Position numbers and translations under genes: made by a program. Below, one piece after another: positions 9,649 to 51,850 of a stretch of DNA of 64,000 nt. The stretch is from Eledone cirrhosa (taxonomy: Eukaryota), in NCBI GenBank assembly GCA_964016885.1, contig OZ024742.1, positions 178,808,001 to 178,872,000 of the forward strand. The letters run 5' to 3'. The notes under the pieces are model-generated. The model had not been told where the DNA came from and made no database searches. It was given only the letters and a program-made list of their open reading frames with translations. Each line of letters starts with the position of its first letter. Position 1 is the stretch's first letter.

Positions 9649-9741
9649 GTATGTGTGTGTATATATATATGTTTATGCATATATATATGCATATACATAT
9701 ATATATATACATACACACATACATATGTATATATATATATA

Positions 9742-9936
9742 TATTTTATAGAAGGAGCTTCTACAAGACTAGTACTGTTTCATTCAGATGAAATCTTCAG
9801 GAAGCCCACTGAAGATTTCATCTGAATGAAACAGTACTAGTCTTGTAGAAGCTCCTTCTATAAAATAAAAAAATTTTACTCTGCCATGTATTGAGTACCT
9901 TACTTACTGTGGTTATCCCCGACTCAACCCGGGACC

Positions 9937-16980: not shown

Positions 16981-17395
16981 TATATATATATATATAAATA
17001 TATATATGTATATATACATACATATATATATATTGTTATATTTGGGGAGGGTCATATTGTTATAATATTGCCAGAGATAATAACAGAACACACTCACGTT
17101 TGGTTTGAGTTGGTTTTCGCTTCTGTATCTTTTATATCTCCACAGTTAATTTATCTGGTAATCAATGTTTATCATTGATTGACCAACGGTTAAAAATACA
17201 GATATAAATATATATATATATAGTCTATCAAAGTTCTTCCGTCACACACCTGTGGCATCATCTGTGGTACTATTATGTTTCCTCCCGTTGTATTGTAATA
17301 CCTACGTCATTTCTATTTAACTAATTTATTTATTTATTTTTGTCTCTGTCTCTGATTGCGCATGCGTTTCTCTGATTGCGAATGTGTGTTTCCTG

Positions 17396-17444
<49 letters not shown>

Positions 17445-17449
17445 CACAT

Positions 17450-17986
17450 ATATCAACTAGAAATAGATTGACACATATATATATAAAATAAACACATGAA
17501 ACAATCTCAGGGAATAATTTGTAAAGTGTGTAAGCACACATAGCTAGGTAGGTAACTAATTAAAGTTTAACTAGAACTTCAAATATAAATACCTTTTAAA
17601 ATGATTTGCATTTGCTGTGTAAACGCAGATGGTTGGATCTTCTCCTTTGGTGACCATCCGGGATTTGACCGCTGTGATTTACTGGTTAATTGGTGAAATA
17701 TATTTTTTATTTAAAGAAATATATACAAAGGAGATTAATCATTTTAAAAGGTATCTATATTTGAAGTTCTAGTTAAACTTTAATTAGTTACCTACCAAGC
17801 TATGTGTACTTACACATTTTACAAATTATTCCCTGAGATTGTTTCATGTGTTTATTTTATATATATATATATCAATCTATTTATAGTTGATATAAAATGG
17901 TCGGATCTATTCATTGCAATCTTTGAGCTTATTCTGCAGTGAATATGGCGCATGTCTCTCAGACATGATAACCTTAATTTAATTTT

Positions 17987-17990
<4 letters not shown>
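17450..17990 (+). mobile_element. Fold-back element with about 157-bp inverted arms
   Basis: Arms 17450-17607/17737-17893. The spacer holds a hammerhead-like motif. Confidence 0.8.
17641..17734 (+). ncRNA. Hammerhead-like motif, G3-C8 variant, with AT-rich duplication near the cleavage site
   Basis: Perfect 9-bp stem I TCTCCTTTG/CAAAGGAGA; core GTGACCA; GAAATATATA. GAAATATA is duplicated around TTTTTTATTTAAA. Confidence 0.55.
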
Positions 17991-18055
<65 letters not shown>

Positions 18056-20815: not shown

Positions 20816-21380
<565 letters not shown>

Positions 21381-37727: not shown

Positions 37728-38240
37728 ATTAAGTTAAAAATGTACATCCACATATGTATACTGAAATACTAGTATGCATATGAATACACACACGTGTACA
37801 TATGTAGATGTACCGAGTTTTTCACTGGTCACTTTACTGTGAGTGTCCAGCTATTCTGTATGTAAACACACAGACAAACCGGTTTTTAGAGTCATACTGG
37901 TTTTTGAGGAAACACCTTTCCTCTATTCTCCAGAAAGCCAGACAAGGAATATTGGACTAGTTTCGATGTTGTTACATCTCATCAGCAATATTTACCTATC
38001 TTCTGGCCTTTCTAGAGAATCGTAAAAGCACATATCGTTATATGCTTTTTCTATGAAAATTAGTAGTGGGCAGACTAATTTGCATAGAGCATGAGTACGT
38101 ACCGGTTCAACGGAGACGATAAAAACAAATAACGAAACGAAATTAAATTTCGTTTCGTTTGTAACTCACTTTTGTATGACTGACGCTTAAACAATTAAGT
38201 TAAAAATGTACATCCACATATGTATACTGAAATACTAGTA

Positions 38241-38291: not shown

Positions 38292-38483
38292 CGAAGGAGA
38301 TGTGGTAAGGAACCAAGTGGACCATAACGCAGTACTCAATACTTAGGGTAGTAGAGTGGGTAATAGGAACGAGTAAGACCCCGACGGCTGAGCTCAAGCC
38401 GTTTCGACGGCTAATTCTGGACGGCTAGTTCCAGAATTAGCCGTCGAAACGGCTTGAGCTCAGCCGTCGGGGTCTTACTCGTT

Positions 38484-38488
<5 letters not shown>
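38289..38488 (-). mobile_element. Family A fold-back element
   Basis: Family A consensus; loop CTGGACGGCTAGTTCCAG. Confidence 0.88.
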
Positions 38489-38544
<56 letters not shown>

Positions 38545-48627: not shown

Positions 48628-48966
48628 TAGAAACTGAGGTTTCTTTTACAAAATGAAAAATAAACGAGGTGTTCTACACGAGTGAAAGTGTAAAGAAAAA
48701 AGATGAAATCGAAAATGAAACTGGAATCTTTAAAAAAAAAAAAATATTTATTCGGTTCCTTTACCGGTTTCGAAGTTCTTGTGCTTTTCAAAAGTAGAAT
48801 TGAGATGGAGGGTTTGTGGTTTTTCTCACATCTGATGAGAAAAACGACAAACCCTCCATCTCAATTCTACTTTTGAAAAGCGCAAGAACTGCGAAATCGG
48901 TAAAGGAACCAAATAAATATATTAAAAAAAAAACACTCCAGTTGCATTTTCGATTTCATCTTTTTT

Positions 48967-51458: not shown

Positions 51459-51850
<392 letters not shown>

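Follow-up and report, generated by a model that had tools for sequence, protein, structure and literature searches.

A predicted type I hammerhead with a natural G3-C8 pair in a ~545-nt tandem repeat of Eledone cirrhosa

The hammerhead motif at the locus

The window analysed here is a 64,000-nt stretch of contig OZ024742.1 of the Eledone cirrhosa assembly GCA_964016885.1. Its plus strand carries what is, judged by its letters and predicted fold, an intact, natural G3-C8 type I hammerhead motif, for which cleavage is predicted. Stem I (17641-17649 with 17726-17734) has 9 bp, Watson-Crick throughout, and brackets the core, as had been proposed in an earlier reading made without database searches (the sequence-only reading). 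The core at 17650-17656 reads GTGACCA, i.e. G3 U4 G5 A6 C7 C8 A9; U4, G5, A6 and A9 are kept and the 3-8 pair is swapped, again as first described. U10.1 and the 5' strand of stem II (17657-17661) follow, with 17690-17693 as partner; stem II comprises 3-4 pairs and a mismatch of U10.1 (17657) opposite U11.1 (17694). The 3' strand of stem II, U11.1 and G12 A13 A14 A15.1 occupy 17690-17698, with GAAA confirmed at 17695-17698. Stem III is a hairpin (17698-17724) in which 17698-17708 pairs with 17714-17724, giving 11 bp including one G-U, a 5-nt loop and the closing pair A15.1-U16.1, and it is present in every fold of the plus strand. It is followed by A17, so that in hammerhead numbering U16.1 lies at 17724 and A17 at 17725; a UA cut site is predicted after 17725 (17725-17726). 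Two further helices involve loop II: its 5' part (17661-17682) pairs with the bases before stem I (17619-17640) to form a long helix, P0, of 21 pairs with 6 G-U and two single-A bulges, while its 3' part (17683-17689) has 17735-17741 as predicted partner in a short helix, P0'.

Based on the RNAalifold prediction and pair counts, three stems surround the core with stem I open, i.e. a type I topology. The core features U4 G5 A6, A9, G12 A13 A14, A15.1-U16.1 and H17 are complete in the window copy, and its Watson-Crick 3-8 pair is G-C. Absent are the consensus identities C3 and G8, which are G3 and C8 in subfamily A, and the usual purine-pyrimidine pair 10.1-11.1, which is unpaired in 57/57 alignment rows and U-U by invariant columns. 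Because stem II, mismatch included, is the same in every subfamily, its imperfection, which the sequence-only reading noted, is not a copy-specific defect. What it took for a duplicated GAAATATA with an AT-rich insert is really the 11-bp stem III plus A17, the norm in this family. Its suggestion that the duplication and the imperfect stem II may leave the copy inactive is therefore not supported, both being conserved family architecture. The window copy has the subfamily majority base across the ribozyme, with 17660 as the sole exception; this base is G in 21 and A in 39 of 65 rows, and its U partner pairs with either.

No Rfam hammerhead model matches this locus, and, apart from one unrelated HH9 match, a scan of the 64-kb window gave nothing beyond simple repeats that resemble miRNAs. 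The opposite strand of the locus has no hammerhead core. A type I descriptor of our own was applied to 200 loci together with the window; it recovered this lineage and about ten other hammerhead families, and gave 0 matches on the reversed sequence that served as control.

The repeat element and its insertion

The motif lies, as noted earlier, in the spacer of a fold-back: a 130-nt spacer within a 158-bp, 96% inverted repeat. The inverted arms are thus as described, while the nature of this 'fold-back element' is better given as a Penelope-type insertion of a tandem-repeat monomer and an inverted truncated piece. On the plus strand, 17603-17988 is a 5'-truncated copy of a ~545-nt monomer (monomer positions 150-534) with a 'long' 3' end at (TA)n. 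On the minus strand, 17449-17606 is an inverted, 5'-truncated monomer piece (284-440) with a 'short' 3' end at (TA)n. The target is represented by a TA-rich microsatellite at the left insertion end (17400-17448) and a (TA)n microsatellite at the right (17989-18052).

The genome search and consensus that the sequence-only reading had called for gave 1,461 candidates at the DNA level (40 scored, at 96-99% identity), with G3-C8 recurring as a subfamily trait. The unit is arranged head-to-tail, its end joined straight to its start, with lengths of 546, 535 and 569 nt in three subfamilies, and each tandem unit carries one type I hammerhead. Among 126 distinct segments at 60 loci, 5' starts are scattered and 3' ends are fixed at two unit positions, 440 and 534, which lie 94 nt apart and are both adjoined by TA runs. 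Fold-backs make up 34 of 51 insertion clusters; 26 of the 34 combine one long with one short 3' end, and the window insertion is of this type. Copies are little more alike within one insertion (4.2% difference) than across insertions (5.6%). Three real units folded as circles gave z scores of -5.7, -2.7 and -3.2 (25 shuffles each).

In the available text of PMC8557442 and PMC11167929, Penelope-like elements are said to insert as truncated, tandem or inverted pieces with a 'tail' at one end, and to target (TA)n. The scattered 5' starts, the one-long-one-short ends and the (TA)n targets therefore point to Penelope-type mobilisation, and the element was likely copied into TA microsatellites by Penelope-type enzymes. 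It fits a non-coding non-LTR retrozyme with Penelope-type ends, for which RNA is predicted and circles are possible.

An ORF at a fixed place beside the unit was found in none of 200 loci, where Penelope-like ORF pieces occur at varied distances and strands. A partner search started from 10,596 GIY-YIG candidates, of which 150 were scored and 30 fetched with their flanks; neither these 30 loci nor five long-ORF loci held a coding partner sharing sequence with the unit. Neptune-like ORFs ending on (TA)n are present, but without sequence common to the unit. Going by the linker motif, we take the GIY-YIG and long-ORF loci to be mostly Neptune-like. Long open Penelope-like ORFs (frames of 604-1,096 aa) with a reverse transcriptase (RT) and C-terminal GIY-YIG occur at loci L232-L236 and are candidate enzyme sources; the 3' UTRs checked there showed no clear canonical hammerhead.

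Distribution and covariation of the G3-C8 pair

In one subfamily, of at least 278 places, the swap is fixed, and among its sisters positions 3 and 8 change together (G-C, C-G, U-A), which supports the idea of a natural G3-C8 variant. All pattern tallies are manual counts over listed rows. A pattern free at positions 3, 7 and 8 matched 1,782 genomic places (reversed-pattern control 0), and the first 100 listed comprise 80 U-A, 16 G-C and 4 other. G3 is found at 278 places (reversed control 0), with 96 G-C, 2 G.A and 2 G.U among the first 100 listed; every base occurs at N7 in these 96 G-C copies (C 82, A 10, U 3, G 1). C3 or A3 occurs at 81 places, all of them listed: 46 C-G, 19 C.A, 6 C.C, 2 C.U and 8 with A3, none of the latter being A3-U8. 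When all seven core letters were open, 322 places were found. The first 100 listed contain 51 G-C, 27 C-G, 11 U-A and 11 mismatched copies (3-8 paired in 89/100), and U4, G5, A6 and A9 are unchanged in 96, 97, 98 and 98, respectively.

Chosen copies from nine groups were aligned in 58 rows (57 distinct). The 3-8 pair in the 57 rows is U-A in 31, G-C in 14, C-G in 8, U-G in 2 and other in 2, i.e. a standard pair in 55/57. Pairing reaches 94% in stem I, where 5 of 9 pairs have changed in both strands, and 99-100% in stem III; given no structure beforehand, RNAalifold predicts all three stems. The sequence-only reading had named the loss of GTGANCA, or of stem I/II pairing, in other copies as evidence against it; what the copies show is C8 at 96 of the 100 listed G3 places and the 94% pairing of stem I.

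The copies are kin, so these covariation counts represent few events, not hundreds. They amount to about two double changes that arose independently, one from C-G to G-C and one or two from C-G to U-A. A B-type sub-subfamily with a C3.A8 mismatch and a common diagnostic letter in loop II is found at 13 places; such a mismatch can therefore spread, and strict pairing is possibly not needed for spread. Its loci include L156, L167, L174-L176, L178 and L179. A sub-subfamily with A at N7 retains G3-C8.

Sister families and direction of the swap

A looser pattern for C3-G8 in the same frame (U-U plus CC/GG) matched 426 places, with 6 in the control. Subfamily X is 85-88% identical to A and has the stem I and N7 of the window copy, but C3-G8. 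C3-G8 is also found in subfamily Y (~72% identity to A) and in families G and H (62-67% over the 3' part). Copies of G and H (L245-L249, L256, L231) have a 7-bp stem I, a long stem III and a long helix between 5' flank and loop II, as here. Most outgroup families were recovered with patterns that required core letters.

A tree of 55 rows was built with IQ-TREE, with positions 3, 7 and 8 masked, and was rooted on G and H. In it the G3-C8 copies group together in a single clade of 11 rows (9 G-C, 2 C.C; support 100/98) on a branch of 0.034 changes per site. The U3-A8 copies form another clade (support 100/100), with a U.G copy at its base. The remainder of the tree, including the sisters X and F as well as G, H and Y, is C3-G8, and unrooted trees are concordant. 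Because the G3-C8 copies are one clade in the rooted tree and the outgroups are C3-G8, the sequences indicate that C3-G8 is ancestral and that G3-C8 arose once from it, later to spread and diversify. Two U3.G8 wobble copies, L092:2217-2373 (+) and L187:1440-1596 (-), lie near the base of the U3-A8 clade and represent the expected intermediate from C-G to U-A.

Two other approaches were set aside. Ordering the subfamilies by divergence (1.3-4.9%) suffers from too large a sampling bias, and outgroups were used instead. A single templated inversion or palindrome repair, worked through by hand, does not convert the sister core to this core.

The long helix P0 and the short helix P0'

P0 joins the 22 nt immediately 5' of stem I to the first 22 nt of loop II and has a duplex energy of -22.4 kcal/mol in the window copy. 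The main part of P0 is 84% paired in the alignment, and both partners have changed in 7 of its 17 pairs, with the caveat that shifting bulges make the columns less sharp. Matched flank and loop halves of one subfamily give a mean of -17.2 kcal/mol vs -13.3 kcal/mol for mixed halves. Among 40,320 label permutations (147/176 copies, eight related groups) P0 ranks 28, a rank that is no p-value because the eight groups are related; stem I, the positive control, ranks 1,056 and three unrelated segment pairs rank 7,203, 25,593 and 19,139. Subfamily B has matching insertions on both P0 strands. Thirteen copies from X, Y, G and H were compared with shuffles, and in 11 of them the P0 duplex beats at least 195 of 200; the exceptions are G_L247 (124/200 shuffles as low) and X_L239b (20/200, with an internal duplication). 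A-type halves mostly do not cross-pair with G/H-type halves, and the distant families keep P0 in other letters. Taken together, the sequences indicate that a ~20-bp helix between 5' flank and loop II is conserved, with compensatory changes across all subfamilies and the distant families.

P0', formed by the 3' part of loop II and the bases after stem I, is 95% paired with no double change in the alignment; in G and H it has other letters and, by eye, still 4-5 pairs. Two local alternatives are less well conserved: an extension of stem II (17665-71/17683-89) is only 57% paired, and an extension of stem I, 78% paired and showing a single double change, has less support than P0. A fold with P0, P0' and stem III reaches -28.0 kcal/mol vs -26.5 kcal/mol for a simple hammerhead whose stems are extended locally.

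P0 has no more than one base in common with stems I and II and can therefore be described as a pseudoknot on the hammerhead, with only 7-8 nt leading from its far end back to stem II. P0 and P0' are candidate peripheral contacts between stems I and II. According to our own helix-length estimate, the fold with complete P0 would be strained within one unit and strain-free between neighbouring tandem units. Equally possible are an off-state fold and a shorter pseudoknot confined to one unit. P0 may limit cleavage to tandem transcripts and is as such a candidate new control over the timing of hammerhead cleavage.

One tentative model, which we regard as possible though doubtful, is a hammerhead in two halves that fold separately. 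The loop of the ~20-bp P0 hairpin would present the 5' strand of stem I, the core and the 5' strand of stem II, while a domain closed by P0' would present the rest, giving a strain-free ribozyme between successive units. Assembly between units is proposed since the 0-1-nt link between the halves strains the single-unit fold. If true, this would be a new way to cut multimers and yet spare unit-length circles, without the palindromic stem III on which other animal hammerheads rely. A word search for such a long helix returned nothing.

Comparison with known hammerheads

Metazoan non-LTR retrozymes, as described in the available text of PMC7229834 and of Li et al. 2026 (10.64898/2026.07.22.740005), resemble this element in being non-coding head-to-tail repeats with one type I hammerhead per unit, low GC, a structured unit and a Penelope link. 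According to Cervera and de la Pena 2020 (PMC7229834), the axolotl HHR_Amex2 has U-U at the base of helix II, as here. As far as these sources describe them, metazoan retrozymes lack the G3-C8 core found here, have a stem III of 1-2 bp vs 9-11 bp, and differ in that loop II here (~28-38 nt) is locked in a ~20-bp helix with the 5' flank. The unit here is also longer, 535-569 nt against the typical ~300 bp (PMC7229834).

Penelope-like pLTRs carry minimal type I hammerheads, including the U3-A8 form of Schistosoma Cercyon, with natural covariation at 3-8 and tandem and inverted truncated insertions, all as here (PMC4209133). In contrast to what the available text reports for them, the motif here has no G10.1-C11.1 pair and no palindromic mini stem III, and no linked ORF was found; the variants given there do not include G3-C8. 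In the consulted text of Perreault et al. 2011 (PMC3088659), natural bacterial and phage variants include U3-A8 and U10.1-U11.1, and G3-C8 is absent from it. Natural U3-A8 has already been published (PMC3088659, PMC4209133). In the PK hammerhead (PMC11300833, as partly available) a helix replaces the loop-loop contact of stems I and II, comparable to P0; that helix has 6 bp and replaces helix II, whereas P0, which belongs to an animal repeat, has ~20 bp and leaves stem II in place. The same core has been made in the laboratory as C3G/G8C double mutants (PMC11167929, PMC8495972, PMC3884650), which are reported to show partial rescue that is better when 17 is not C. Here, by contrast, the swap is natural, fixed in hundreds of copies and combined with A17.

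No natural G3-C8 pair was found in full-text searches or in keyword searches of PMC11014351, PMC10085705 and PMC6765202, a survey that is not exhaustive, nor in the searchable supplements of PMC4209133 and PMC3088659, whose figures are not searchable. What appears new, as far as the searches reach, are the natural G3-C8 pair and the conserved ~20-bp peripheral helix, while type I hammerheads, retrozymes and U3-A8 are already known. G8 is drawn as invariant and the searches described in the consulted papers use CUGANGA-type descriptors; G3-C8 families are therefore invisible to such searches, and Rfam misses this one. The present lineage contains three of the four Watson-Crick versions of the 3-8 pair; the direction of change among them is known, and one C3-G8 sister is nearly identical. 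It thus offers a ready natural series for measuring how important cleavage rate is to a mobile element of the Penelope type.

Predicted activity and alternative explanations

The reading that we favour, and hold to be probable, is that of a type I hammerhead with G3-C8 in a ~545-nt tandem repeat, with predicted cleavage after A17725 and Penelope-type copying into TA microsatellites. Tandem copies would be transcribed, and the hammerheads would cut the multimer to unit RNAs, which might be circularised. A Penelope-type protein with RT and GIY-YIG would then prime on nicked (TA)n via the TA-rich unit junction and write more-than-unit, truncated and inverted copies. The general acid in the hammerhead is the 2'-OH of G8; base identity at 8 would for this reason matter less than the 3-8 pair, and restoring the pair would restore useful activity. 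A17 would prevent a G3-C17 mispair. P0 would substitute for the contact between loops I and II and hold the two stems together, either through its proximal part, inside one unit, or as a whole helix that joins neighbouring units.

G8C costs 10^5-fold in activity and C3G rescues it partly, according to the available part of PMC8495972, and a partial C3G/G8C rescue is also reported for a lizard Penelope hammerhead (PMC11167929, likewise). The G3-C8 variant is said to be more active with G than with C at 17, data not being given in the accessible text (PMC3884650); the copies here have A17. U10.1-U11.1 is described as the best tolerated mismatch and is found in active natural ribozymes (PMC3088659, PMC7229834, available passages); several C3-G8 families of this genome have it too. 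Subfamily A has good prospects, in our estimate, of cleaving at the predicted site, probably more slowly than its C3-G8 sisters.

That the locus is a chance AT-rich arrangement without ribozyme ancestry is hardly credible. Rfam has no hammerhead model for it and the single copy folds with only a modest advantage over shuffles (z about -2.1 to -2.7), yet the sister families refute such a reading because they have the canonical core: CUGANGA stands at the homologous position in sisters and outgroups (46 places; 426 matches, control 6). The covariation and the zero matches in reversed controls argue the same way. A different question is whether this real descendant of a hammerhead still needs to cleave. 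G3-C8 could be slow or dead and have hitch-hiked, with pairing kept for RNA shape or packaging, which we consider unlikely. The spread of C3.A8 to 13 places would agree with this, as would the incomplete rescue in double mutants and the mismatched intermediate that the path from C-G to G-C requires. So would an in vitro system with the lizard Penelope element in which, according to the available text of PMC11167929, insertion went ahead with mutant hammerheads and RNA ends at the site were not observed. However, both letters became a complementary pair on one short branch (0.034), and the sub-subfamily with N7 = A retained G3-C8. Moreover, U4, G5, A6, A9 and GAAA-U-H are fixed in families that are 62-100% alike, while N7, loops and stems vary.

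The unit could also be the pLTR of a coding Penelope-like element, its copies being truncated ends or internal-deletion derivatives and no independent retrozyme. The Penelope-type signature of tail, inversion and (TA)n suits a pLTR, animal retrozymes are related to pLTRs in the text available of 10.64898/2026.07.22.740005, and the flanks examined cover 30 of the 150 scored GIY-YIG matches (10,596 candidates). The head-to-tail units of 535-569 nt, with end directly at start, and the lack of a fixed ORF neighbour in 200 loci make this origin rather improbable.

Other features in the window and genome

A canonical C3-G8 type I hammerhead with a UC site is present in another repeat at 37932-38003 (-) of the window; it is the HH9 match in Rfam, with 38.9 bits, below gathering. 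A further hammerhead of the canonical C3-G8 kind lies at ~9740-9810 (-) with its core at 9800; it has a UA site, a long stem III and U10.1.U11.1, and the same family is found in L064 and L192. To its left, at ~17040-17390 (-), the locus has as neighbour the 3' end of a different Penelope-like element whose hammerhead is decayed; the intact counterpart follows a GIY-YIG ORF in L092 and L107. By its motifs this GIY-YIG element is presumably Hydra-like. A small fold-back at L221:2460-2680 belongs to another short repeat, whose end has a short motif common to the 3' part of the unit. Perfect or near-perfect fold-backs are also found in the window at 20974-21055, 48792-48872, 51515-51664 and 38400-38490, and are probably other inverted Penelope-type ends.
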